From Eledone cirrhosa (taxonomy: Eukaryota): a DNA stretch of 64,000 nucleotides. The notes beneath the pieces were generated by a model. That model saw only the letters and a list, made by a program, of their open reading frames with translations. It was not told where the DNA came from and made no database searches. The translations under genes were made by a program, and so were the position numbers. Location of the stretch: NCBI GenBank assembly GCA_964016885.1, contig OZ024748.1:17546001-17610000 (forward strand). Reading direction: 5' to 3'. Shown here one piece after another: positions 251-61,909 of this stretch (the stretch's first letter is position 1; every line of letters begins with the position of its first letter).

Positions 251-2016
<1,766 letters not shown>

Positions 2017-2780
2017 TAGTCTTACTTAACAGTTTAATTTACTCCATGTAACCTCAAGGTTAATTGCATTTCTTCAATTCTAAATTACATTCCTTGTCAT
2101 TACATTTTATTTGATTTTGTCTTATTTCATGTTTATTTGGATTTCAAATTATTTCTATTTTCATTTTTTTATATATATTTTTTTATTTTTTAGTATTTTT
2201 CTTATATTATTCTTACAGTCTGTATATTTTTTCTTTTAAGTATGTATATGCATTGTATATTTTTTTTTATATTTATATATATTGTCTATTTTTTTCTTTT
2301 AAATATATATATTATATTTTTTTTTTAAATATTTATATGTATATATTGTATATTTTTTTAGAATATTTATATATATTGTATATATTTATTTTTTTTAAAT
2401 ATTTATATATATATTTTTTTTCTTTTTAATAGTTATATATATTGTATTTTTTTTCTTTTAAATATTTATATATACTATATAGTTTTTCTAAGTGTGAAAA
2501 AATAACTGATAAAAAAAAACTACAAAAAAAATGAAATTAGAAATGGTTAATTGTTAATTGTTTTATATACTAAAGAGAAAATGGAAGAGAAATAATATAA
2601 ATGAAAAAAATGAAAGTAAATTAAAATTGAAATTAAAAACACATGTAAAACTTATTAAAGTTTAGATTACTCTGCTAGGAAATAGTATGATAACGAGGAG
2701 ACTATTTACACACTCATTATCACATTTATTATATTGTCTTGTGCATTAATTATACATACATATACCCGTGTGTATATATA

Positions 2781-2830
<50 letters not shown>

Positions 2831-3271
2831 GCAGACGTAAAATGAAATGTAAATGAATGTGTTTGTTTTGTGAGGTTTTTGATATGAAATCGTGTGTCGA
2901 AATAAATATTGTTCTACTTGGGGAGGGTCATATTGTTGTAATAATATTGCCAGAATTAATAACAGAATGCACTCACTTTTTGGTTTGTTTTAGCTTCTGT
3001 ATCTTTTATATCAGTTAATTCATTCGGTTCTCAATGTTTTCCATTGACTGACCAGCGGTCAAAAATACAGATATAATATAGATATAAACACATATATGTA
3101 GATAAATCTACCAAAATATACGGTATGAAGAACTCAATGTAATCCAAATATCATGAAAAGAGAAGATGCATTCAAAAAGTTTTCGATGAAAATCCCAGGA
3201 AAACAGAGTCAAGATAAATTAATAAAAACAATGAATAAAAACAAAGAACAAGTTCCTTATATTAAAAAATT

Positions 3272-22569: not shown

Positions 22570-25500
22570 ATAGTGTACCAGAGACTGGAATATATACTGT
22601 ATTTTAAAGAACTGTAGCTAGAACTGAATACACTGTGTGTTTTAAAGAAGTGTTCCAGGTCTTAAATACACTGTATATATTAAAGAAGTGTTCCAGGGCT
22701 TAAATACACTGTATATTTTAAAGAAGTGTTCCAGCGCTTAAATACACTGTGTGTTTTAAAGAAGTTTTCCAGGGCTTAAATACACTGTATATTTTAAAGA
22801 AGTGTTCCAGCGCTTAAATACACTGTGTGTTTTAAAGAAGTGTTCCAGCGCTTAAATACACTGTGTGTTTTAAAGAAGTGTTCCAAGGCTTAAATACACT
22901 GTATATTTTAAAGAAGTGTTCCAGGGCTTAAATACACTGTATATATTAAAGAATTGTTCCAGAGCTTAAAGACACTGTATATTTTAAAGAAGTGTTCCAG
23001 GGCTTAAATACACTGTATATTTTAAAAAAGTGTTCCAGGGCTTAAATACGCTGTATATTTTAAAGAAGTGTTCCAGGGCTTAAATACACTGTGTGTTTTA
23101 AAGAAGTGTTCCAGGGCTTAAATACACTGTGTGTTTTAAAGAAGTGTTCCAGGTCTTAAATACACTGTATATTTGAAAGAAGTGTTCCAGGGCTTAAATA
23201 CACTGTATATTTTAAAGAAGTGTTCCAGGGCTTAAATACACTGTATATATTAAAGAAGTGTTCGAGAGCTTAAATACACTGTATATTTTAAAGAAGTGTT
23301 CCAAGGCTTAAATACACTGAATATTTTAAAGAAGTGTTCCAGGGCTTAAATACACTATATATTTTAAAGAAGTGTTCGAAGGCTTAAATACACTGTATAT
23401 TTTAAAGAAGTGTTCCAGGTCTTAAATACACTGTATATTTTAAAGAAGTGTTCGAAGGCTTAAATACACTGTATATTTTAAAGAAGTGTTCCAGGTCTTA
23501 AATACACTGTATATTTTAAAGAACTGTTCGAAGGCTTAAATACACTGTATATTTTAAAGAAGTGTTCCAGGGCTTAAATACACTGTGTGTTTTAAAGAAG
23601 TGTTCCAGGGCTTAAATACACTGTATATATTAAAGAAGTGCTCCAAGGCTTAAATACACTGTATATTTTAAAGAAGTGTTCCAGGGCTTAAATACACTGT
23701 GTGTTTTAAAGAAGTGTTCCAGGGCTTAAATACACTGTATATTTTAAAGAAGTGTTCCAGGGCTTAAATACACTGTATATATTAAAGAAGTGTTCCAGAG
23801 CTTAAATACACTGTATATTTTAAAGAAGTGTTCCAAGGCTTAAATACACTGTATATTTTAAAGAAGTGTTCCAGGGCTTAAATACACTGTGTGTTTTAAA
23901 GAAGTGTTCCAGGGCTTAAATACACTGTATATATTAAAGAAGTGCTCCAAGGCTTAAATACACTGTATATTTTAAAGAAGTGTTCCAGGGCTTAAATACA
24001 CTGTGTGTTTTAAAGAAGTGTTCCAGGGCTTAAATACACTGTATATTTTAAAGAAGTGTTCCAGGGCTTAAATACACTGTATATATTAAAGAAGTGTTCC
24101 AGAGCTTAAATACACTGTATATTTTAAAGAAGTGTTCCAAGGCTTAAATACACTGTATATTTTAAAGAAGTGTTCCAGGGCTTAAATACACTGTATATTT
24201 TAAAGAAGTGTTCGAAGGCTTAAATACACTGTATATTTTAAAGAAGTGTTCCAGGTCTTAAATACACTGTATATTTTAAAGAAGTGTTCGAAGGCTTAAA
24301 TACACTGTATATTTTAAAGAAGTGTTCCAGGGCTTAAATACACTGTATATTTTAAAGAAGTGTTCCAGGTCTTAAATACACTGTATATTTTAAAGAAGTG
24401 TTCGAAGGCTTAAATACACTGTATATTTTAAAGAAGTGTTCCAGGGCTTAACTACACTGTATATTTTAAAGAAGTGTTCGAAGGCTTAAATACACTGTAT
24501 ATTTTAAAGAAGTGTTCCAGGTCTTAAATACACTGTATATTTTAAAGAAGTGTTCGAAGGCTTAAATACACTGTATATTTTAAAGAAGTGTTCCCGGGCT
24601 TAAATACACTGTATATTTTAAAGAAGTGTTCCAGCGCTTAAATACACTGTATATTTTAAAGAAGTGTTCGAAGGCTTAAATACACTGTATATTTTAAAGA
24701 AGTGTTCCAGGGCTTAAATACACTGTATATTTTAAAGAAGTGTTCCAGGGCTTAAATACACTGTATATTTTAAAGAAGTGTTCGAAGGCTTAAATACACT
24801 GTATATTTTAAAGAAGTGTTCCAGGTCTTAAATACACTGTATATTTGAAAGAAGTGTTCCAGGGCTTAAATACACTGTATATTTTAAAGAAGTGTTCCAG
24901 GGCTTAAATACACTGTATATATTAAAGAAGTGTTCGAGAGCTTAAATACACTGTATATTTTAAAGAAGTGTTCCAAGGCTTAAATACACTGAATATTTTA
25001 AAGAAGTGTTCCAGGGCTTAAATACACTATATATTTTAAAGAAGTGTTCGAAGGCTTAAATACACTGTATATTTTAAAGAAGTGTTCCAGGTCTTAAATA
25101 CACTGTATATTTTAAAGAAGTGTTCGAAGGCTTAAATACACTGTATATTTTAAAGAAGTGTTCCAGGTCTTAAATACACTGTATATTTTAAAGAACTGTT
25201 CGAAGGCTTAAATACACTGTATATTTTAAAGAAGTGTTCCAGGGCTTAAATACACTGTGTGTTTTAAAGAAGTGTTCCAGGGCTTAAATACACTGTATAT
25301 ATTAAAGAAGTGCTCCAAGGCTTAAATACACTGTATATTTTAAAGAAGTGTTCCAGGGCTTAAATACACTGTGTGTTTTAAAGAAGTGTTCCAGGGCTTA
25401 AATACACTGTATATTTTAAAGAAGTGTTCCAGGGCTTAAATACACTGTATATATTAAAGAAGTGTTCCAGAGCTTAAATACACTGTATATTTTAAAGAAG

Positions 25501-28500
25501 TGTTCCAAGGCTTAAATACACTGTATATTTTAAAGAAGTGTTCCAGGGCTTAAATACACTGTGTGTTTTAAAGAAGTGTTCCAGGGCTTAAATACACTGT
25601 ATATATTAAAGAAGTGCTCCAAGGCTTAAATACACTGTATATTTTAAAGAAGTGTTCCAGGGCTTAAATACACTGTGTGTTTTAAAGAAGTGTTCCAGGG
25701 CTTAAATACACTGTATATTTTAAAGAAGTGTTCCAGGGCTTAAATACACTGTATATATTAAAGAAGTGTTCCAGAGCTTAAATACACTGTATATTTTAAA
25801 GAAGTGTTCCAAGGCTTAAATACACTGTATATTTTAAAGAAGTGTTCCAGGGCTTAAATACACTGTATATTTTAAAGAAGTGTTCGAAGGCTTAAATACA
25901 CTGTATATTTTAAAGAAGTGTTCCAGGTCTTAAATACACTGTATATTTTAAAGAAGTGTTCGAAGGCTTAAATACACTGTATATTTTAAAGAAGTGTTCC
26001 AGGGCTTAAATACACTGTATATTTTAAAGAAGTGTTCCAGGTCTTAAATACACTGTATATTTTAAAGAAGTGTTCGAAGGCTTAAATACACTGTATATTT
26101 TAAAGAAGTGTTCCAGGGCTTAACTACACTGTATATTTTAAAGAAGTGTTCGAAGGCTTAAATACACTGTATATTTTAAAGAAGTGTTCCAGGTCTTAAA
26201 TACACTGTATATTTTAAAGAAGTGTTCGAAGGCTTAAATACACTGTATATTTTAAAGAAGTGTTCCCGGGCTTAAATACACTGTATATTTTAAAGAAGTG
26301 TTCCAGCGCTTAAATACACTGTATATTTTAAAGAAGTGTTCGAAGGCTTAAATACACTGTATATTTTAAAGAAGTGTTCCAGGGCTTAAATACACTGTAT
26401 ATTTTAAAGAAGTGTTCCAGGGCTTAAATACACTGTATATTTTAAAGAAGTGTTCGAAGGCTTAAATACACTGTATATTTTAAAGAAGTGTTCCAGGTCT
26501 TAAATACGCTGTATATTTTAAAGAAGTGTTCGAAGGCTTAAATACACTGTATAGTTTAAAGAAGTGTTCCAGGGCTTAAATACACTGTGTGTTTTAAAGA
26601 AGTGTTCCAGGGCTTAAATACACTGTATATATTAAAGAAGTGCTCCAAGGCTTAAATACACTGTATATTTTAAAGAAGTGTTCCAGGGCTTAAATACACT
26701 GTATATTTTAAAGAAGTGTTCGAAGGCTTAAATACACTGTATATATTAAAGAATTGTTCCAGAGCTTAAAGACACTGTATATTTTAAAGAATTGTTCCAG
26801 GGCTTAAATACGCTGTATATTTTAAAGAAGTGTTCCAGGGCTTAAATACACTGTGTGTTTTAAAGAAGTGTTCCAGGGCTTAAATACACTGTGTGTTTTA
26901 AAGAAGTGTTCCAGGTCTTAAATACACTGTATATTTGAAAGAAGTGTTCCAGGGCTTAAATACACTGTATATTTGAAAGAAGTGTTCCAGGGCTTAAATA
27001 CACTGTATATATTAAAGAAGTGTTCCAGAGCTTAAATACACTGTATATTTTAAAGAAGTGTTCCAAGGCTTAAATACACTGTATATTTTAAAGAAGTGTT
27101 CCAGGGCTTAAATACACTGTATATTTTAAAGAAGTGTTCGAAGGCTTAAATACACTGTATATTTTAAAGAAGTGTTCCAGGTCTTAAACACACTGTATAT
27201 TTTAAAAAGTGTTCGAAGGCTTAAATACACTGTATATTTTAAAGAAGTGTTCCAGGTCTTAAATACACTGTATATTTTAAAGAAGTGTTCGAAGGCTTAA
27301 ATACACTGTATATTTTAAAGAAGTGTTCCAGGGCTTAAATACACTGTGTGTTTTAAAGAAGTGTTCCAGGGCTTAAATACACTGTATATATTAAAGAAGT
27401 GCTCCAAGGCTTAAATACACTGTATATTTTAAAGAAGTGTTCCAGGGCTTAAATACGCTGTATATTTTAAAGAAGTGTTCCAGGGCTTAAATACACTGTG
27501 TGTTTTAAAGAAGTGTTCCAGGGCTTAAATACACTGTGTGTTTTAAAGAAGTGTTCCAGGTCTTAAATACACTGTATATTTGAAAGAAGTGTTCCAGGGC
27601 TTAAATACACTGTATATTTGAAAGAAGTGTTCCAGGGCTTAAATACACTGTATATATTAAAGAAGTGTTCCAGAGCTTAAATACACTGTATATTTTAAAG
27701 AAGTGTTCCAAGGCTTAAATACACTGTATATTTTAAAGAAGTGTTCCAGGTCTTAAACACACTGTATATTTTAAAAAGTGTTCGAAGGCTTAAATACACT
27801 GTATATTTTAAAGAAGTGTTCCAGGTCTTAAATACACTGTATATTTTAAAGAAGTGTTCGAAGGCTTAAATACACTGTATATTTTAAAGAAGTGTTCCAG
27901 GGCTTAAATACACTGTGTGTTTTAAAGAAGTGTTCCAGGGCTTAAATACACTGTATATATTAAAGAAGTGCTCCAAGGCTTAAATACACTGTATATTTTA
28001 AAGAAGTGTTCCAGGGCTTAAATACACTGTGTGTTTTAAAGAAGTGTTCCAGGGCTTAAATACACTGTATATTTTAAAGAAGTGTTCCAGGGCTTAAATA
28101 CACTGTATATATTAAAGAAGTGTTCCAGAGCTTAAATACACTGTATATTTTAAAGAAGTGTTCCAAGGCTTAAATACACTGTATATTTTAAAGAAGTGTT
28201 CGAAGGCTTAAATACACTGTATATTTTAAAGAAGTGTTCCAGGTCTTAAATACACTGTATATTTTAAAGAAGTGTTCGAAGGCTTAAATACACTGTATAT
28301 TTTAAAGAAGTGTTCCAGGTCTTAAATACACTGTATATTTTAAAGAAGTGTTCCAGGGCTTAAATACACTGTATATTTTAAAGAAGTGTTCCAGGTCTTA
28401 AATACACTGTATATTTTAAAGAAGTGTTCGAAGGCTTAAATACTCTGTATATTTTAAAGAAGTGTTCCAGGGCTTAAATACACTGTATATTTTAAAGAAG

Positions 28501-31500
28501 TGTTCGAAGGCTTAAATACACTGTATATTTTAAAGAAGTGTTCCAGGTCTTAAATACACTGTATATTTTAAAGAAGTGTTCGAAGGCTTAAATACACTGT
28601 ATATTTTAAAGAAGTGTTCCAGGTCTTAAATACACTGTATATTTTAAAGAAGTGTTCGAAGGCTTAAATACACTGTATATTTTAAAGAAGTGTTCCAGGT
28701 CTTAAATACACTGTATATTTTAAAGAACTGTTCGAAGGCTTAAATACACTGTATATTTTAAAGAAGTGTTCCAGGGCTTAAATACACTGTGTGTTTTAAA
28801 GAAGTGTTCCAGGGCTTAAATACACTGTATATATTAAAGAAGTGCTCCAAGGCTTAAATACACTGTATATTTTAAAGAAGTGTTCCAGGGCTTAAATACA
28901 CTGTGTGTTTTAAAGAAGTGTTCCAGGGCTTAAATACACTGTATATTTTAAAGAAGTGTTCCAGGGCTTAAATACACTGTATATATTAAAGAAGTGTTCC
29001 AGAGCTTAAATACACTGTATATTTTAAAGAAGTGTTCCAAGGCTTAAATACACTGTATATTTTAAAGAAGTGTTCCAGGGCTTAAATACACTGTATATTT
29101 TAAAGAAGTGTTCGAAGGCTTAAATACACTGTATATTTTAAAGAAGTGTTCCAGGTCTTAAATACACTGTATATTTTAAAGAAGTGTTCGAAGGCTTAAA
29201 TACACTGTATATTTTAAAGAAGTGTTCCAGGGCTTAAATACACTGTATATTTTAAAGAAGTGTTCCAGGTCTTAAATACACTGTATATTTTAAAGAAGTG
29301 TTCGAAGGCTTAAATACACTGTATATTTTAAAGAAGTGTTCCAGGGCTTAACTACACTGTATATTTTAAAGAAGTGTTCGAAGGCTTAAATACACTGTAT
29401 ATTTTAAAGAAGTGTTCCAGGTCTTAAATACACTGTATATTTTAAAGAAGTGTTCGAAGGCTTAAATACACTGTATATTTTAAAGAAGTGTTCCAGGTCT
29501 TAAATACACTGTATATTTTAAAGAAGTGTTCGAAGGCTTAAATACACTGTATATTTTAAAGAAGTGTTCCCGGGCTTAAATACACTGTATATTTTAAAGA
29601 AGTGTTCCAGCGCTTAAATACACTGTATATTTTAAAGAAGTGTTCCAGGTCTTAAATACACTGTATATTTTAAAGAAGTGTTCCAGGGCTTAAATACACT
29701 GTATATTTTAAAGAAGTGTTCCAGGGCTTAAATACACTGTATATTTTAAAGAAGTGTTCGAAGGCTTAAATACACTGTATATTTTAAAGAAGTGTTCCAG
29801 GTCTTAAATACGCTGTATATTTTAAAGAAGTGTTCGAAGGCTTAAATACACTGTATAGTTTAAAGAAGTGTTCCAGGGTTTAAATACACTGTGTGTTTTA
29901 AAGAAGTGTTCCAGGGCTTAAATACACTGTATATATTAAAGAAGTGCTCCAAGGCTTAAATACACTGTATATTTTAAAGAAGTGTTCCAGGGCTTAAATA
30001 CACTGTATATTTTAAAGAAGTGTTCGAAGGCTTAAATACACTGTATATATTAAAGAATTGTTCCAGAGCTTAAAGACACTGTATATTTTAAAGAAGTGTT
30101 CCAGGGCTTAAATACACTGTATATTTTAAAAAATTGTTCCAGGGCTTAAATACGCTGTATATTTTAAAGAAGTGTTCCAGGGCTTAAATACACTGTGTGT
30201 TTTAAAGAAGTGTTCCAGGGCTTAAATACACTGTGTGTTTTAAAGAAGTGTTCCAGGTCTTAAATACACTGTATATTTGAAAGAAGTGTTCCAGGGCTTA
30301 AATACACTGTATATTTGAAAGAAGTGTTCCAGGGCTTAAATACACTGTATATATTAAAGAAGTGTTCCAGAGCTTAAATACACTGTATATTTTAAAGAAG
30401 TGTTCCAAGGCTTAAATACACTGTATATTTTAAAGAAGTGTTCCAGGGCTTAAATACACTGTATATTTTAAAGAAGTGTTCGAAGGCTTAAATACACTGT
30501 ATATTTTAAAGAAGTGTTCCAGGGCTTAAATACACTGTATATTTTAAAGAAGTGTTCCAAGGCTTAAATACACTGTATATTTTAAAGAAGTGTTCCAGGG
30601 CTTAAATACACTGTATATATTAAAGAAGTGTTCCAGAGCTTAAATACACTGTATATTTTAAAGAAGTGTTCCAAGGCTTAAATACACTGTATATTTTAAA
30701 GAAGTGTTCCAGGGCTTAAATACACTGTATATTTTAAAGAAGTGTTCGAAGGCTTAAATACACTGTATATTTTAAAGAAGTGTTCCAGGTCTTAAATACA
30801 CTGTATATTTTAAAGAAGTGTTCGAAGGCTTAAATACACTGTATATTTTAAAGAAGTGTTCCAGGGCTTAAATACACTGTATATTTTAAAGAAGTGTTCC
30901 AGGTCTTAAATACACTGTATATTTTAAAGAAGTGTTCGAAGGCTTAAATACACTGTATATTTTAAAGAAGTGTTCCAGGGCTTAACTACACTATATATTT
31001 TAAAGAAGTGTTCGAAGGCTTAAATACACTGTATATTTTAAAGAAGTGTTCCAGGTCTTAAATACACTGTATATTTTAAAGAAGTGTTCGAAGGCTTAAA
31101 TACACTGTATATTTTAAAGAAGTGTTCCCGGGCTTAAATACACTGTATATTTTAAAGAAGTGTTCCAGCGCTTAAATACACTGTATATTTTAAAGAAGTG
31201 TTCGAAGGCTTAAATACACTGTATATTTTAAAGAAGTGTTCCAGGGCTTAAATACACTGTATATTTTAAAGAAGTGTTCCAAGGCTTAAATACACTGTAT
31301 ATTTTAAAGAAGTGTTCGAAGGCTTAAATACACTGTATATTTTAAAGAAGTGTTCCAGGTCTTAAATACGCTGTATATTTTAAAGAAGTGTTCGAAGGCT
31401 TAAATACACTGTATAGTTTAAAGAAGTGTTCCAGGGCTTAAATACACTGTGTGTTTTAAAGAAGTGTTCCAGGGCTTAAATACACTGTATATATTAAAGA

Positions 31501-34500
31501 AGTGCTCCAAGGCTTAAATACACTGTATATTTTAAAGAAGTGTTCCAGGGCTTAAATACACTGTATATTTTAAAGAAGTGTTCGAAGGCTTAAATACACT
31601 GTATATATTAAAGAATTGTTCCAGAGCTTAAAGACACTGTATATTTTAAAGAAGTGTTCCAGGGCTTAAATACACTGTATATTTTAAAAAATTGTTCCAG
31701 GGCTTAAATACGCTGTATATTTTAAAGAAGTGTTCCAGGGCTTAAATACACTGTGTGTTTTAAAGAAGTGTTCCAGGGCTTAAATACACTGTGTGTTTTA
31801 AAGAAGTGTTCCAGGTCTTAAATACACTGTATATTTGAAAGAAGTGTTCCAGGGCTTAAATACACTGTATATTTGAAAGAAGTGTTCCAGGGCTTAAATA
31901 CACTGTATATATTAAAGAAGTGTTCCAGAGCTTAAATACACTGTATATTTTAAAGAAGTGTTCCAAGGCTTAAATACACTGTATATTTTAAAGAAGTGTT
32001 CCAGGGCTTAAATACACTGTATATTTTAAAGAAGTGTTCGAAGGCTTAAATACACTGTATATTTTAAAGAAGTGTTCCAGGTCTTAAACACACTGTATAT
32101 TTTAAAAAGTGTTCGAAGGCTTAAATACACTGTATATTTTAAAGAAGTGTTCCAGGTCTTAAATACACTGTATATTTTAAAGAAGTGTTCGAAGGCTTAA
32201 ATACACTGTATATTTTAAAGAAGTGTTCCAGGGCTTAAATACACTGTGTGTTTTAAAGAAGTGTTCCAGGGCTTAAATACACTGTATATATTAAAGAAGT
32301 GCTCCAAGGCTTAAATACACTGTATATTTTAAAGAAGTGTTCCAGGGCTTAAATACACTGTGTGTTTTAAAGAAGTGTTCCAGGGCTTAAATACACTGTA
32401 TATTTTAAAGAAGTGTTCCAGGGCTTAAATACACTGTATATATTAAAGAAGTGTTCCAGAGCTTAAATACACTGTATATTTTAAAGAAGTGTTCCAAGGC
32501 TTAAATACACTGTATATTTTAAAGAAGTGTTCCAGGGCTTAAATACACTGTATATTTTAAAGAAGTGTTCGAAGGCTTAAATACACTGTATATTTTAAAG
32601 AAGTGTTCCAGGTCTTAAATACACTGTATATTTTAAAGAAGTGTTCGAAGGCTTAAATACACTGTATATTTTAAAGAAGTGTTCCAGGTCTTAAATACAC
32701 TGTATATTTTAAAGAAGTGTTCCAGGGCTTAAATACACTGTATATTTTAAAGAAGTGTTCCAGGTCTTAAATACACTGTATATTTTAAAGAAGTGTTCGA
32801 AGGCTTAAATACTCTGTATATTTTAAAGAAGTGTTCCAGGGCTTAAATACACTGTATATTTTAAAGAAGTGTTCGAAGGCTTAAATACACTGTATATTTT
32901 AAAGAAGTGTTCCAGGTCTTAAATACACTGTATATTTTAAAGAAGTGTTCCAGGTCTTAAATACACTGTATATTTTAAAGAAGTGTTCGAAGGCTTAAAT
33001 ACACTGTATATTTTAAAGAAGTGTTCCAGGTCTTAAATACACTGTATATTTTAAAGAAGTGTTCGAAGGCTTAAATACACTGTATATTTTAAAGAAGTGT
33101 TCCAGGTCTTAAATACACTGTATATTTTAAAGAACTGTTCGAAGGCTTAAATACACTGTATATTTTAAAGAAGTGTTCCAGGGCTTAAATACACTGTGTG
33201 TTTTAAAGAAGTGTTCCAGGGCTTAAATACACTGTATATATTAAAGAAGTGCTCCAAGGCTTAAATACACTGTATATTTTAAAGAAGTGTTCCAGGGCTT
33301 AAATACACTGTGTGTTTTAAAGAAGTGTTCCAGGGCTTAAATACACTGTATATTTTAAAGAAGTGTTCCAGGGCTTAAATACACTGTATATATTAAAGAA
33401 GTGTTCCAGAGCTTAAATACACTGTATATTTTAAAGAAGTGTTCCAAGGCTTAAATACACTGTATATTTTAAAGAAGTGTTCCAGGGCTTAAATACACTG
33501 TATATTTTAAAGAAGTGTTCGAAGGCTTAAATACACTGTATATTTTAAAGAAGTGTTCCAGGTCTTAAATACACTGTATATTTTAAAGAAGTGTTCGAAG
33601 GCTTAAATACACTGTATATTTTAAAGAAGTGTTCCAGGGCTTAAATACACTGTATATTTTAAAGAAGTGTTCCAGGTCTTAAATACACTGTATATTTTAA
33701 AGAAGTGTTCGAAGGCTTAAATACACTGTATATTTTAAAGAAGTGTTCCAGGGCTTAACTACACTGTATATTTTAAAGAAGTGTTCGAAGGCTTAAATAC
33801 ACTGTATATTTTAAAGAAGTGTTCCAGGTCTTAAATACACTGTATATTTTAAAGAAGTGTTCGAAGGCTTAAATACACTGTATATTTTAAAGAAGTGTTC
33901 CAGGTCTTAAATACACTGTATATTTTAAAGAAGTGTTCGAAGGCTTAAATACACTGTATATTTTAAAGAAGTGTTCCCGGGCTTAAATACACTGTATATT
34001 TTAAAGAAGTGTTCCAGCGCTTAAATACACTGTATATTTTAAAGAAGTGTTCCAGGTCTTAAATACACTGTATATTTTAAAGAAGTGTTCCAGGGCTTAA
34101 ATACACTGTATATTTTAAAGAAGTGTTCCAGGGCTTAAATACACTGTATATTTTAAAGAAGTGTTCGAAGGCTTAAATACACTGTATATTTTAAAGAAGT
34201 GTTCCAGGTCTTAAATACGCTGTATATTTTAAAGAAGTGTTCGAAGGCTTAAATACACTGTATAGTTTAAAGAAGTGTTCCAGGGTTTAAATACACTGTG
34301 TGTTTTAAAGAAGTGTTCCAGGGCTTAAATACACTGTATATATTAAAGAAGTGCTCCAAGGCTTAAATACACTGTATATTTTAAAGAAGTGTTCCAGGGC
34401 TTAAATACACTGTATATTTTAAAGAAGTGTTCGAAGGCTTAAATACACTGTATATATTAAAGAATTGTTCCAGAGCTTAAAGACACTGTATATTTTAAAG

Positions 34501-37382
34501 AAGTGTTCCAGGGCTTAAATACACTGTATATTTTAAAAAATTGTTCCAGGGCTTAAATACGCTGTATATTTTAAAGAAGTGTTCCAGGGCTTAAATACAC
34601 TGTGTGTTTTAAAGAAGTGTTCCAGGGCTTAAATACACTGTGTGTTTTAAAGAAGTGTTCCAGGTCTTAAATACACTGTATATTTGAAAGAAGTGTTCCA
34701 GGGCTTAAATACACTGTATATTTGAAAGAAGTGTTCCAGGGCTTAAATACACTGTATATATTAAAGAAGTGTTCCAGAGCTTAAATACACTGTATATTTT
34801 AAAGAAGTGTTCCAAGGCTTAAATACACTGTATATTTTAAAGAAGTGTTCCAGGGCTTAAATACACTGTATATTTTAAAGAAGTGTTCGAAGGCTTAAAT
34901 ACACTGTATATTTTAAAGAAGTGTTCCAGGTCTTAAACACACTGTATATTTTAAAAAGTGTTCGAAGGCTTAAATACACTGTATATTTTAAAGAAGTGTT
35001 CCAGGTCTTAAATACACTGTATATTTTAAAGAAGTGTTCGAAGGCTTAAATACACTGTATATTTTAAAGAAGTGTTCCAGGGCTTAAATACACTGTGTGT
35101 TTTAAAGAAGTGTTCCAGGGCTTAAATACACTGTATATATTAAAGAAGTGCTCCAAGGCTTAAATACACTGTATATTTTAAAGAAGTGTTCCAGGGCTTA
35201 AATACACTGTGTGTTTTAAAGAAGTGTTCCAGGGCTTAAATACACTGTATATTTTAAAGAAGTGTTCCAGGGCTTAAATACACTGTATATATTAAAGAAG
35301 TGTTCCAGAGCTTAAATACACTGTATATTTTAAAGAAGTGTTCCAAGGCTTAAATACACTGTATATTTTAAAGAAGTGTTCCAGGGCTTAAATACACTGT
35401 ATATTTTAAAGAAGTGTTCGAAGGCTTAAATACACTGTATATTTTAAAGAAGTGTTCCAGGTCTTAAATACACTGTATATTTTAAAGAAGTGTTCGAAGG
35501 CTTAAATACACTGTATATTTTAAAGAAGTGTTCCAGGTCTTAAATACACTGTATATTTTAAAGAAGTGTTCCAGGGCTTAAATACACTGTATATTTTAAA
35601 GAAGTGTTCCAGGTCTTAAATACACTGTATATTTTAAAGAAGTGTTCGAAGGCTTAAATACTCTGTATATTTTAAAGAAGTGTTCCAGGGCTTAAATACA
35701 CTGTATATTTTAAAGAAGTGTTCGAAGGCTTAAATACACTGTATATTTTAAAGAAGTGTTCCTGGTCTTAAATACACTGTATATTTTAAAGAAGTGTTCG
35801 AAGGCTTAAATACACTGTATATTTTAAAGAAGTGTTCCAGGGCTTAAATACACTGTATATTTTAAAGAAATGTTCCAGCGCTTAAATACACTGTATATTT
35901 TAAAGAAGTCTTCGAAGGCTTAAATACACTGTATATTTTAAAGAAGTGTTCCAGGTCTTAAATACACTGTATATTTTAAAGAAGTGTTCGAAGGCTTAAA
36001 TACACTGTATATTTTAAAGAAGTGTTCCAGGGCTTAAATACACTGTGTGTTTTAAAGAAGTGTTCCAGGGCTTAAATACACTGTATATATTAAAGAAGTG
36101 CTCGAAGGCTTAAATACACTGTATATTTTAAAGAAGTGTTCCAGCGCTTAAATACACTGTATATTTTAAAGAAGTGTTCGAAGGCTTAAATACACTGTAT
36201 ATTTTAAAGAAGTGTTCCAGGGCTTAAATACACTGTATATTTTAAAGAAGTGTTCCAGGGCTTAAATTCACTGTATATTTTAAAGAAGTGTTCGAAGGCT
36301 TAAATACACTGTATATTTTAAAGAAGTGTTCCAGGTCTTAAATACACTGTATATTTTAAAGAAGTGTTCGAAGGCTTAAATACACTGTATATTTTAAAGA
36401 AGTGTTCCAGGGCTTAAATACACTGTGTGTTTTAAAGAAGTGTTCCAGGGCTTAAATACACTGTATATATTAAAGAAGTGCTCCAAGGCTTAAATACACT
36501 GTATATTTTAAAGAAGTGTTCCAGGGCTTAAATACACTGTGTGTTTTAAAGAAGTGTTCCAGGGCTTAAATACACTGTATATTTTAAAGACGTGTTCCAG
36601 GGCTTAAATACACTGTATATTTTAAAGAAGTGTTCCAGGGCTTAAATACACTGTATATTTTAAAGAAGTGTTCGAAGGCTTAAATACACTGTATATTTTA
36701 AAGAAGTGTTCCAGGTCTTAAATACACTGTATATTTTAAAGAAGTGTTCGAAGGCTTAAATACACTGTATATTTTAAAGAAGTGTTCCATGGCTTAAATA
36801 CACTGTGTGTTTTAAAGAAGTGTTCCAGGGCTTAAATACACTGTATATATTAAAGAAGTGTTCCAGGTCTTAAATACACTGTATATTTTAAAGAAGTGTT
36901 CCAGGGCTTAAATACACTGTATATTTTAAAGAAGTGTTCGAAGGCTTAAATACACTGTATATTTTAAAGAAGTGTTCCAGGTCTTAAATACACTGTATAT
37001 TTTAAAGAAGTGTTCGAAGGCTTAAATACACTGTATATTTTAAAGAAGTGTTCCATGGCTTAAATACACTGTGTGTTTTAAAGAAGTGTTCCAGGTCTTA
37101 AATACACTGTATATATTAAAGAAGTGTTCCAAGGCTTAAATACACTGTATATTTTAAAGAAGTGTTCCAGGGCTTAAATACACTGTGTGTTTTAAAGAAG
37201 TGTTCCAGGGCTTAAATACACTGTATATATTAAAGAAGTGTTCCAGGTCTTAAATACACTGTATATTTTAAAGAAGTGTTCCAGGGCTTAAATACACTGT
37301 ATATATTAAAGATGTGTTCCAGGGTTTAAATACACTGTATATTTTAAAGAACTGTAACTAGGACTAAATACACTGTGTGTTT
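22570..37382. repeat. 38-bp satellite DNA array, ~390 monomers, consensus gaagtgttccagggcttaaatacactgtatattttaaa
   Basis: Uninterrupted head-to-tail monomers; variants at a few fixed positions; rare variants recur at 1672-bp and 4407-bp spacing. Confidence 0.98.
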
Positions 37383-37384
37383 GG

Positions 37385-37810
37385 CAGTGGTAGATGTGGT
37401 GGTCATGGTGGTGTTAACAGGTTATAGTAGAGGTAGTGTTGGTTAGGGCAAGGTGATGGTAGAGGTGGTGGTGGTGATTAGTGAAGCAGAGATGTGATGG
37501 TAGTGGTGGTGTTAGTTGGCGGGTTATAGTAGAGGTAGTCGTGGTTGGGGGGGGTAGATATGGTGGTGATGGTGGTGGTGGTAGATGTGGTTGTGATGCT
37601 GATGGTGGTGATGTAGATGTGGTGGTGGTGCTGGTAGATGTAGTGGTGGTGGCGGTGGTGGTGATGGTAGATCTGGTGGTGGTGGTGGTGGCAGGCAGTA
37701 ATGGGAGTAAGGATGCTGGTGATAGGTGGGGGTGAAGGTAGTAGTGGTGATAGTAATGATAATGATGGTGGTGGGGTGGTGGTGGTCGGTGTAGTTGATA
37801 ATGATGGTAA
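37385..37810. repeat. Degenerate (GGT)n repeat
   Basis: Direct reading. Confidence 0.85.
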
Positions 37811-38082: not shown

Positions 38083-38675
38083 GGTGGCTGCCAACTCGTT
38101 TTCGAGTACGGCCACTACTTTATAACCATGTAGGAGAACCCCTACCGATACGCTGAACGAGTGTGACTTTTTAGTCCAGCCAGCAACTTGAAAACTCTGG
38201 TACAAACACTACACTTGTGACAATTATTGACACATAGTGCTGGGCCCATGGTACCATGTAATGACAAGTGCAGAGAGATCTCCAGATACAAAGCAATGCC
38301 TGTGCCGTGAAGCTTTTATAGTGAGCAAAGGCACTGCACAAAGCCAGTCCCACTCTCTTAACCAAGATGATATTTACCAAAAAGAAGAACAAGTCAACAT
38401 CATTGGATACCATCAGGGTTGCAGGTGTTATATCAGAGTTTTCCTTCTCCTAGAATTCTGCCTTGACAAAGGCTAAGGGGTCATCTCTCCCGGTGATTTT
38501 GGATGGCCATTGACTCTTAAGAGCTCCTTTGCCCTTTGACAGGTTTTGTTTTTAGTCCTGCAGGATGTCCAAAGTCACCCTCCTCACCAAGAAACCTTAG
38601 TGGGGTTGCCAGTTTAGTCGCCAACGACCCGACCATGAGACAGGTTGTACTGGGATACATGTTACCAGTAGCACC
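38083..38675 (-). mobile_element. Apparently full-length ~590-bp bipartite non-autonomous RTE-like retroposon
   Basis: The 5' part resembles RTE 5' UTRs (gggtcgttggcgactaaactggcaacccc, ggagaaggaaaactctg). The 3' part has a C2H2 remnant (CSVCTRV..LAGLKSHTRS, frameshifted). No RT in between; flanked by TA/TACA arrays; second copy at 1-250. Confidence 0.6.
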
Positions 38676-38678
38676 ACA

Positions 38679-38714
<36 letters not shown>

Positions 38715-39445
38715 CATACATATATACATACATACATATATACATACATACATATATACATACATACATATATATATACATATATACATACATATATATA
38801 TATATACATACATATATACATACATATATACATACATATATATATACATACATATATATATACATACATATATATATACATATATACATACATATATATA
38901 CATACATACATACACATACATACATACATATTTACTATACACATATATATATATATATATATATTTACTATACACATAAATATATATATATATATATATA
39001 CACATATATACATACATATATATATATATATACATATATATATACATATATATATACATACATACATATATACATATATATATACATACATATATACATA
39101 CATATATATATATACATATATATATACATACATATATATATACATATATATATACATACATATATATATACATACACATAAATATACATATAAATATACA
39201 TATATATATATATATACATATATATACATATATACATATATATACATACATATATATACATATACATACATATACATACATATATATATATACATACATA
39301 TATATACATATATACCTACATACACATATATATATACATACATACACATATATATATACATACATACACATATACATACATACACATATACATACATACA
39401 CATATACATACATACATACATATATATATATATATTATATATTTA
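38676..39445. repeat. (TACA)n/(TA)n microsatellite
   Basis: Direct reading. Confidence 0.93.
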
Positions 39446-39547
39446 TAAATAAAATTTATTTAACATACATAAACATGGCAGTGCTCCAGCATGGCCTAAG
39501 CCTATTGTCAGGAACATATAATGGAGTATTAGATGAAACATACACAC

Positions 39548-39584
<37 letters not shown>

Positions 39585-39719
39585 AATCAAAGAGGGGATT
39601 CCTTCCATAGCCATCCTTCACAAATGAATTTATATGAAGTAATTATAACTGATTTATATTTCATGAGATAAAAGTGTGAAGCAGACATGATTATAGAAAT
39701 ATATGTATATGCACAGACA

Positions 39720-39758
<39 letters not shown>

Positions 39759-39817
39759 CGTCTAACCCATGCTAGCGTGGAAGATGGACGTTAAATGATG
39801 ATGATGATATATATACA

Positions 39818-40152
39818 ATGATATTAAATGAATGGAAACCACATTTATAAAACCATATCTACTCTATTTTATATATTTCAAGGGCAACCAAGACAACATT
39901 GGTACGCTTTCGTCAGATAAAACACAAAGTTTGCTCTACAAATAGAGACATACCCATGAAAATCAAACCTATCACTATCCAGTGAATTTCCAACCGATAA
40001 GGTATGATTTTCATGGGTATGTCTCCATTTACAAAACAAACCTTGTATTTCATCTGACGAAAGCGCACCAATGTTGTCTTGGTTACCCTCGAAATATATA
40101 AAACAAAACAAATATGGTTTCACAAATACAGCTTCCATTCATTTAACATCAT
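39818..40152. mobile_element. 335-bp palindromic element; each arm carries an HHR-like motif
   Basis: Arms 39818-~39970 and ~40000-40152 are inverted copies; CUGACGA at 40054-60, a stem II, then GAAA-tatata. Confidence 0.8.
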
Positions 40153-40285
40153 AGAATATTTACTCCAGTAATCTGTTGAGTGCTCTAAATCAGTTATAAA
40201 CATTTATATTTGTCGGACTTCCAACAAATTAAATACCACTTCTACTTATATATATATAATCTCATATATATATATACATATATAT

Positions 40286-40581
40286 AAACTCAGAGCTGTA
40301 TGGGAGCATCCCAAAAGTCAGCTCAAAAGTGACACAGAGGAGACTGAGGTTGGCTGGACATGCTCACCGACATCCAGAGTTGACATTGCACTCAGTGCTC
40401 CTTTGGGAGCCCCTACATGGACACACTAGAAGAGGAAGACCAAGGTTAACGTATGTTGATGCCCTAAGGACAGACACTGGTCTGTTGGAGACGCAGGACA
40501 TGGCAGCGATAATGAGGGACAGAGACCGCTGGAGAGAACTCGTCCATGGATCTCGGGAATTTTACCCGCCTTAGATAGATA
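40286..40581 (+). mobile_element. 3' fragment of RTE/RTEX-type LINE
   Basis: [49 protein letters not shown]; same family as 5294-5701. Confidence 0.88.
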
Positions 40582-40672
40582 TATATATAATAGTAGAACA
40601 CTGTTAGGTTATATCCGTAGTAGTAGAGCACTCAGTCCATGGGTGGGACGAGTTTGATAGAAGTTCCACAAC

Positions 40673-40738
40673 AGTTAATTCACCATTTCTGAGAACAATT
40701 GTTTCACTTTAGTCAGATCATCAGCTGCTGAATTAACT
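40673..40738 (-). ncRNA. Degenerate minimal hammerhead motif
   Basis: Minus strand: agttaattcagcag CUGAUGA tctgactaaagt GAAA caattg UU ctc...tgaattaact; palindromic stem III; weak stems I and II. Confidence 0.5.
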
Positions 40739-40749
40739 TCTATATTATG

Positions 40750-40781
<32 letters not shown>

Positions 40782-40782
40782 C

Positions 40783-41096
40783 CATCATCATACGTCTGCT
40801 TTTCCTTGCTTGCAAGGGTGGGACGGGAACTGATTCTGGCTTGATGACCTTCCTAACACCAACCTCATTTACAGTGAGTGCTGGGTGCTTTTTTGCCGTG
40901 GCACCTCCACGTCCACTTTGTAGTGGAATGATAGGGACTCCAGTCCCTATCATCTCATTTCTACAGCTGAGTAAACTGGATCAATGTGAAATAAAGTGTC
41001 TTGCTCAAGGAAACAACACATCACCCTGTCTGAGAATTGAACTCACAACCTTTCGATTGCAAGGCCAATGCTCTAACCACTAAGCCATGCGCCTCC
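40783..41096 (-). mobile_element. tRNA-headed SINE family B with RTE-derived tail
   Basis: Head ggaggcgcatggcttagtggttagagc..gagttcaattc; tail cccttgcaagcaaggaaaagcagacgta(tga)n. Confidence 0.85.
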
Positions 41097-41846
41097 AGAA
41101 TCAGGACGCCGACAGCTGAGCTCCGGCCGTTTCGACAGCTATTCTTTGTTAAATATATATATATTATACACGCACGCACGCACAAACACACACACACACA
41201 CACGCACAGACTAAATATATATACATACATATATACATACATACACATACATGTATATATACATACATACACATACATACACATACATACATATATACAT
41301 ACATACACATACATATACATACATACATAGAAATACCTATACATACATACACATACATATATATATATACATACATAAAAATATACATACATGTATATAT
41401 ACATACATACATACGTACATCTATCTATATATATATATACATACACATATACATACATACACACATACATACATACACACACATATATATACACACACAC
41501 ACACACACAAAGATATATATATGCAGTAAAGAGTTAATCAAGCCAAGTTGAAAAGTGTGTTAACCAATTTTGGTTTGAGCTGCTTTTCGTTATCTCTCCG
41601 CTCAACTGGTTACTATGGAATATACAATATACAGATCTGAATTACAGGATGTATTAGTTAGTGTTTTAAAGATACAATAGCTTCTCTTCTCCCCTTAATT
41701 TGGCATAGGCCTGACTACAGCGCCCCCGCTCTCTAACTCTCCACCCCCACCTCCATCTCAGACTAGATAATTAAATATAGTCATGGTATTTTGAATGATT
41801 TCTCATGTATATTCCCCCAACATAGCTGCTGCTTGTTTAAATTCTA

Positions 41847-60805: not shown

Positions 60806-61033
60806 AATATATATATATATAAAGCAGACATACAATGACGACGATGATGATGATGATATATATTTATATGTACTAATATATATATATTTATATGTACTTA
60901 TATATACTTATATTTTATATATATATATATATGTACTTATATATATATATATATGTATGTGCTTATAAATATATATATAATAATCTATATACTATTAATA
61001 TATAGTTATGTAATAAACAACATAAGGCAATTA

Positions 61034-61094
61034 TTTCATTTACCAGTGGTTTCTTAAAAGCAAAAAAATTTTGCTTTCAATCATCAGAATGAAA
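61034..61094 (-). ncRNA. Intact type I hammerhead ribozyme (left arm)
   Basis: Reverse complement of 61436-61496. Confidence 0.85.
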
Positions 61095-61435
61095 AAATCC
61101 TGGCGTATTTATTGACGTTGGATTTTAAAAACAAAAATGCAATCTATATGAAAGTGAGGCTGGAAAAGGAAGAAGGAAAGGAAAAATAAAATAAAAACAC
61201 ACATGCAAACACACACACACACACACACACATATATACATACACATGTATATATATATACATACACACATACATACACACACACATATATACACACACAC
61301 ACACGTGTGTGTGTGTTTGCATGTGTGTTTTTATTTTATTTTTCCTTTCCTTTCCTTCTTCCCTTTCCAGCCTCACTTTCATGTAGATTGCATTTTTGTT
61401 TTTAAAATCCAACGTCAATAAATACGCCAGGATTT

Positions 61436-61496
61436 TTTCATTCTGATGATTGAAAGCAAAATTTTTTTGCTTTTAAGAAACCACTGGTAAATGAAA
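61436..61496 (+). ncRNA. Intact type I hammerhead ribozyme (right arm)
   Basis: tttcatt CUGAUGA(61443-49) ttgaaagcaaaa-ttt-ttttgcttttaa GAAA(61477-80) ccactgg UA aatgaaa; 7-bp stem I, 12-bp stem II. Confidence 0.88.
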
Positions 61497-61909
61497 TAAT
61501 TGCCTCATGTTGTTTATTACATAACTATTAAGCTCTGTTACCTACATAGAGCACTCTTTTTTCCTGGACTTTTCCGACGGAATTACTTCATTTACTATTA
61601 ATATATATATACTATTACTTATATGGCTTTAGAAATTGGATTCAAATGACAATGATTTATTCGAATCCATCAGTAGAATTCTGAATGATGTATAATATGA
61701 GAACTTTCTAGATTTCAATTGGGAAATGGTTAGGAGATTGCCAGGAACCATCACTGTGTATTTGAGGGGAAGCCATTTATAAAAGGGGCTTTTGTATTGA
61801 GGTATTTCATTAATAGTTTCAACATACACATGTATAAATCTATATAAATGTATGTGGGGAGAGTGTTTGTTTGTGTGTATGTGTGAGTGACATCATTATC
61901 ATCATCATC

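Follow-up and report, generated by a model that had tools for sequence, protein, structure and literature searches.

In the 64,000-nucleotide stretch of Eledone cirrhosa DNA analyzed here (the window, on contig C8), we found a 2.53-kb segment (38676..41207, minus strand) that is very probably the cDNA of an ADAR-hyper-edited transcript, reverse-transcribed and inserted on C8. The segment matches a donor on contig C12 (G000:C12:32737511-32740185) in inverse orientation, with the minus strand of the window corresponding to the plus strand of the donor. Copy and donor differ by 30 substitutions, all 30 of them A>G on the donor plus strand, and by four indels, all in microsatellite sequence. A donor-copy pair that differs only in ADAR-pattern changes would be a clean record of one edited RNA turned into DNA. 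A-to-I editing is usually taken as non-heritable, and the known deaminase scar in genomic retroelements is the G-to-A pattern of APOBEC. If the ADAR reading is true, RNA edits have become DNA mutations, hyper-editing took place in the cell that founded the copy, and a host RNA was mobilized without poly(A). That RNA editing feeds DNA evolution, and that ADAR acts on the RNAs of Penelope-like elements (PLEs), are propositions that can be tested from assemblies alone.

The palindrome and its one-way mismatches

The segment contains a palindrome whose left arm (39818..39973, minus strand) would be the 3' arm of the RNA hairpin and is an inverted copy of a PLE pseudo-LTR (pLTR). The right arm (39996..40152, minus strand), the PLE pLTR itself with its hammerhead sense on the plus strand, would be the 5' arm, and a loop of 22 nt (39974..39995) lies between the two. 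The sequence-only reading had counted by hand about 23 transitions and one transversion between the arms, and had described all of the transitions as sharing one polarity. Both observations were confirmed when 39800-39985 was aligned with the reverse complement of 39990-40175. We found 23 transitions (13 with left A and right C, 10 with left C and right A), one internal transversion (39966/40004), and three more transversions at the ragged outer edge. All 23 transitions are A.C on the plus strand and G.U on the minus strand (binomial p = 2.4e-7), and the bias thus survives proper alignment. The minus strand is predicted to fold into a nearly continuous rod at -227.8 kcal/mol; the plus strand reaches -155.4. 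Compared with the donor, the arms carry 25 changes, not 23; the arm-against-arm count misses the extra two, at 40058 and 40140, because both repaired A.C mismatches that were already in the donor hairpin.

Family copies were collected with the window as the query. The best 40 of 3,643 first-look candidates were scored, and the 30 loci fetched included 2 duplicates, giving 28 distinct copies including the window. A comparable skew was absent from the other 27 copies fetched with this query. In the alignment of the 28 copies, T is the commonest letter at the sites where the window has C. The loop differs in almost every copy (L001-L030) through short inversions and deletions, as if each palindrome had formed by its own fold-back or template switch.

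By its layout, the palindrome is a tail-to-tail pair of PLE pLTRs with hammerhead motifs. Family members consist of (TA)n, an inverted arm, a loop, an arm, and then a tail of ~90 bp on one side. We assign the family to the PLEs because one locus, C2:228.113-228.116 Mb, carries the arm once inverted and then twice direct around a broken RT reading frame, which is the Penelope-like layout with pLTRs and an inverted 5' copy described in PMC8557442. A minimal hammerhead motif (40045..40110, plus strand) combines the core CTGACGA (40054-40060), a long helix II, GAAA (40091-40094), and a palindromic TA helix III, an architecture described in PMC4209133, and it has a mirror copy in the left arm. An Rfam scan of the window returned no match, hammerhead included. 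The U before the cleavage site, which most family copies keep, is missing in the donor and window copies, and the hammerhead is therefore likely inactive in both.

Donor locus, placement of the changes and insertion site

Retinoblastoma-like exons were identified on the plus strand of C12, with matches to RB_B (E = 3.7e-24 and 0.0026) and Rb_C (E = 0.0056); three of the eight pieces searched matched RB families, and the last coding exon was recognized by eye. The gene occupies L139, L031, and L032 (G000:C12:32.709-32.737 Mb, plus strand) and by eye is of the p107/p130 type. Its last coding exon ends at C12:32736708, and the donor starts ~800 bp beyond the stop codon. Since the donor lies on the C12 plus strand just past this stop, the changed strand is the gene's own strand. 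Repeats crowd the region downstream of the gene: one is SINE-like and one a LINE-like fragment, together with the PLE hairpin and a microsatellite of 2.7 kb. We infer that the gene's 3' UTR or a read-through RNA reaches the donor hairpin.

Within 40 kb of C12, only dispersed repeats match beyond the donor segment, and the stretch 40150-40760 is present at full length only on C8 and C12, at 100% identity. The unpaired, one-sided pLTR tail (40153..40245, plus strand) is identical to the donor, and what remains of the copied RNA's 5' part (40246..41207), made up of a LINE-like 3' fragment, a SINE-like repeat, and short microsatellites, shows 0 differences. A (TA/TATG)n mosaic (38676..39439, minus strand) forms the 3' end of the copied RNA, likely the priming end, and carries five A>G changes (38779, 39065, 39177, 39265, and 39275); the donor array is 2.7 kb long and extends ~2 kb past the copied part. 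No G>A and no C>T change separates the window copy from the donor, so an APOBEC-type signature is absent.

In the arms, 25 of 118 adenosines were changed (10/53 in the left arm and 15/65 in the right), compared with 0 of 415 in the non-repeat flanks, which are identical to the donor over 1,433 bp (Fisher p = 5e-18). None of the six loop adenosines was changed, and the five A>G changes outside the arms all lie in the self-complementary TA-rich array. The ADAR context that the sequence-only reading had proposed as a check was also observed. Edited adenosines are favored after U (16/45, p = 0.003) and avoided after G (0/12), with 7/44 after A and 2/17 after C. The depletion after G is marginal in the window copy alone (p = 0.049) and stronger when pooled with the C15 copy described below (0/23, p = 4e-4); upstream-G depletion is a shared ADAR motif (PMC5625713). 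With G on the 3' side, 3/9 adenosines were edited in the window copy, which is not significant (p = 0.29), and 5/8 in the C15 copy; this preference is weak in invertebrates (PMC5625713). The changes are not driven by CpG, the other context that had been put forward for checking. The donor hairpin has two A.C mismatches, and the copy has a change at each (p = 0.04); ADAR favors such mismatches. ADAR-family deaminase exons are present in the genome at four loci; this domain family also includes tRNA deaminases. The edited strand is the strand of the retinoblastoma-like exons and, in the amplified family described below, the strand of the PLE ORF.

The right junction, corresponding to the RNA 5' end, lies in a (CA)n run at 41207. 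The RNA 3' end falls inside the (TA/TATG)n array and adjoins a dispersed repeat that forms the left flank of the target site (38251..38675, plus strand) and that stops ~16 bp short of its end in another copy (L157). No poly(A) or target-site duplication was found at either end. The segment has the retrocopy traits of an unlinked donor, sense strand, and truncation, without the poly(A) and target duplication of the LINE-1 type. Intron loss cannot confirm an RNA step here, because the segment lies wholly past the last coding exon and has no intron inside. When the C8 right flank was used to look for a contig with the site empty, only a single copy came up.

The proposed route starts from what the sequence shows: between 0.8 and 3.5 kb beyond the stop of the gene, a PLE left two pLTRs tail to tail, which form a near-perfect hairpin of 155 bp. 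The gene's 3' UTR or read-through RNA would then span the hairpin, and ADAR would deaminate roughly one in five adenosines of the arms. The RT of a retroelement, most likely of a PLE, would prime the first strand in (UAUG/UA)n from a nick on C8; by reading I as G it would produce T>C on the window plus strand, which would be the first-strand cDNA. The copy ends, again as the sequence shows, in the (CA)n run, without poly(A) or a target duplication. What makes the PLE enzyme the likeliest candidate is the location of PLEs in (TA)n here and their ability to mobilize host RNAs (PMC8557442). The earlier proposal that an edited hairpin transcript had been reverse-transcribed and integrated is supported in its essentials, except that the copy is not of the hairpin alone but of a 2.5-kb piece past a host-gene stop. 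The same route probably recurs for PLE RNAs themselves, including one multi-copy PLE that apparently adds edits over rounds.

Other hairpins and an amplified PLE lineage

A scan of inverted pairs for the same G-U skew, as the sequence-only reading had recommended, covered 312 pairs in 94 loci, the window, and C12, and yielded a second clean case at C15:28.51 Mb. With this one, four skewed hairpins besides that of the window were observed on other chromosomes, with G.U:A.C ratios of 40:2 (C15), 42:1 (C13), 27:0 (C4), and 18:0 (C28:77.57 Mb); these counted cases exclude the weaker scan rows L014 and L077. Compared with 29 sister copies, the C15 copy has 43 A>G and 0 T>C changes on a background of ordinary decay (10 transversions, with 3-15 in the sisters). 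The changes affect 42/112 arm adenosines, 0/31 tail adenosines, and 0/11 adenosines after G. Its left flank is unique, and it appears 16% diverged from its closest sister, mostly via A>G changes. Divergence ages of repeats are possibly inflated by edits in this way, a question that can be tested from assemblies. The C13 copy shows 36-42 A>G changes against five sisters. No donor with shared flanks was found for either the C15 or the C13 copy among the best 40 scored matches each.

In the 27:0 hairpin (L188, G000:C4:244.575 Mb), the normally unpaired tail also appears heavily A>G-shifted, which suggests pairing with another copy. A tail-less palindrome at L036:1178-1567 (G000:C28:115045812-115046201) has (TA)n on both sides and a triplicated 40-bp loop unit. 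This C28:115.05 Mb copy carries A>G changes in both arms with one and the same arm orientation; 4 are shared, and one arm has 7 more. A single edited hairpin RNA does not account for the pattern, which would require a second template, or copying that came after the editing. Skews in L025, L049, and L038 were unconvincing on inspection, arising in microsatellite or diverged copies.

A search with a 31-letter motif that forces two recurrent sites returned 44 matches, whereas its reversed control returned 0. The C13, C4, and C28:77.57 Mb hairpins named above are among these matches. Of the 30 matches fetched, 26 are copies of one multi-kb PLE (L149-L178), and 8 of the 14 unfetched matches carry the same motif letters, as judged by letters alone. 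The matches at C17:10.48 Mb, C2:3.73 Mb, and C2:5.18 Mb were set aside, having no usable partner arm or no skew. A full copy of the multi-copy PLE was located at L179:1739-L180:590 (G000:C2:55.124-55.133 Mb). Upstream of the hairpin, on the edited strand, the element carries an open RT frame of 789 codons. This frame belongs to a related subfamily; by eye, YRDD, a linker rich in Cys, and GIY-YIG/CCHH-like motifs can be recognized in it, and the motif names partly follow PMC8557442. A Pfam search found no match for the PLE RT pieces or the full 789-codon frame. A homologue search with this frame returned 34 unnamed homologues, and one with a single RT piece found nothing.

In the 10 copies that were properly aligned, the embedded hairpin shows 31-38 G.U and 0-2 A.C; the other 16 of the 26 aligned to a neighboring stretch and do not enter the arm counts. 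Across 23 copies, 12/14 shared polymorphisms in the hairpin are A/G and 0 are C/T, with 10 of those 12 lying beyond the forced motif. In 504 columns upstream of the hairpin, A/G accounts for 2/6 shared polymorphisms (Fisher p = 0.037 against the hairpin), and in the PLE ORF A/G and C/T are balanced in two full-length comparisons. The A/G changes were compared as unpolarized differences, and the copy sets, picked by similarity, yield no frequency. The copies share nested variants across at least 26 dispersed loci, and the pattern fits edits being added over successive rounds in this lineage.

In the (TA)n arrays at L154:1200-1485 and 1880-3031, nearly all G lies on the edited strand (203 G vs 26 C). 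In the arrays of 26 copies, 42 A/G and 8 C/T shared variable columns were seen in a noisy alignment. The (TA)n/(TATG)n mosaics, including that of the window (38676-39439), may be edited (UA)n RNA. A broader proposal, that ADAR and the PLE RT form a standing RNA-to-DNA mutation route whose edits, including those of host 3' UTRs, repeatedly enter heritable DNA, accumulate through the retrotransposition cycles of an active PLE lineage, and make the (TATG)n mosaics from (TA)n runs, is tentative, and we rate it somewhat short of probable. If true, the genome keeps a datable fossil record of germline RNA editing.

Alternative explanations and related systems

It is unlikely that the window insertion is an assembly or read artifact, with edited cDNA or a chimeric read patched into C8 between two microsatellites. 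The perfect identity of the flanks to the donor and the position of both junctions in simple repeats are what such patching would leave, and no public sequencing run carries the sequence words with the changes (the highest share in any run is 0.22), no RNA run having turned up among them. In three sets of contigs and a RAD-seq run, the arms showed mostly donor letters, with the insertion junction skipped as repeat. Clusters of one mismatch type can also be sequencing error, such as G-to-A in Sanger traces (PMC2873906). However, contigs lose rare variants, and the sequencing runs need not be of the assembled animal. The same signature is found in older, normally decayed copies without a donor among 40 scored matches (C15 and C13), and in the PLE whose dispersed copies have nested variants in common. 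An artifact would remove at most the window insertion as an example and cannot explain the decayed or amplified cases.

Very unlikely, too, is a strand-specific A>G process at the DNA level during DNA-templated duplication, whether through an error-prone polymerase or through deamination of adenine while an intermediate is single-stranded or paired as RNA:DNA. The lack of poly(A), target duplication, and intron loss would suit it, microsatellite junctions also fit template-switch repair, and ADAR can act on RNA:DNA hybrids (PMC12941027). Against this, neither the loop nor the tail was changed, nor were 1.4 kb of flank, and the changes lie where pairing needs a folded single strand. The ADAR neighbor rule and the sense strand of the gene likewise argue for RNA, and editing of first-strand cDNA would be expected to give the opposite polarity.

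Ordinary mutation filtered by selection, which would maintain an RNA hairpin and allow G.U pairs on the minus strand, is hardly credible. The minus-strand rod does stay paired after all the changes, but selection removes changes and never adds them, and the 313 bp of arms hold 25 while the 1,433 bp of flank hold none; C>T opposite G would also give G.U, and none occurred. That the window copy is ancestral and that C>T deamination (APOBEC-like or at CpG) made the differences would have a precedent in the G-to-A editing of retroelements (PMC2873906) and is refuted, in line with the preference of the sequence-only reading for A-to-G, by the donor and the family majority, which have T on the plus strand at the changed sites and so an ancestral A/T state, and by the Watson-Crick arms that T restores.

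Read as the cDNA of an edited transcript, the segment resembles several known systems. ADAR hyper-editing of inverted repeats (PMC5625713) is alike in its A>G clusters in both arms, its upstream-G depletion, and its palindromic substrate, for which that paper gives the frog Harbinger repeat as an example; there the pattern was seen in RNA reads, whereas in the window case the assembled genome itself carries it, at new loci. APOBEC3 editing of endogenous retroelements (PMC2873906) is alike in leaving a deaminase signature through retrotransposition and clusters of one mismatch type. As described there, the changes are G>A, arise when C is deaminated in minus-strand cDNA, and affect LTR elements; the window case is A>G on the RNA strand, limited to duplex, in PLE RNA and host downstream RNA. 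The pLTR-hammerhead PLEs (PMC8557442, PMC4209133) share the pLTR-ORF-pLTR order, inverted 5' copy, one-sided tail, and (TA)n targets, along with the minimal hammerhead and palindromic helix III (PMC4209133). Their tail is 30-40 bp, against ~90 bp here, and the passages on these elements in the two papers make no mention of editing of an inverted-pLTR hairpin or of its fixation. ADAR and RT write-back at immunoglobulin loci (PMC12941027) is alike in that A-to-I is read as A-to-G after reverse transcription. It is put forward there as a hypothesis of same-locus correction, whereas in the window case donor and copy are at different loci and the donor is unchanged.

Retrocopies, processed pseudogenes, and templated insertions are alike in being partial host-strand copies at an unlinked site with the 5' end cut; the window copy differs from retrocopies in having no poly(A), target duplication, or coding exon, and what points to its RNA origin is the editing marks rather than a lost intron. 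Precedents for RNA edits reverse-transcribed into DNA are A-to-G hypermutated avian retroviral proviruses and the retroprocessing of edited mRNAs in plant mitochondria and kinetoplastids. These are viral or organellar and mostly involve other editing chemistry, whereas the window case concerns an animal nuclear assembly, repeated events, and an amplified lineage. A search of the full-text literature, judged mostly by titles and abstract openings, found no A-to-I-edited retrocopies fixed in an animal nuclear genome. Such genomic copies can mimic or mask editing calls made from RNA-seq.

Other repeats were observed in the window outside the copied segment. A second young palindrome (61002-61528), of other sequence and with ~230-bp arms around a (CA)n/(TG)n center, served as a negative control: its true arms hold only 2 A.C and 1 G.T. 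Its initial score of 28:1 arose from the alignment of (CA)n with (TG)n, and it was rejected as a skewed case. A long tandem array occupies ~24000-37400, with a 38-bp unit within 36000-37400 and flat composition back to ~24000.
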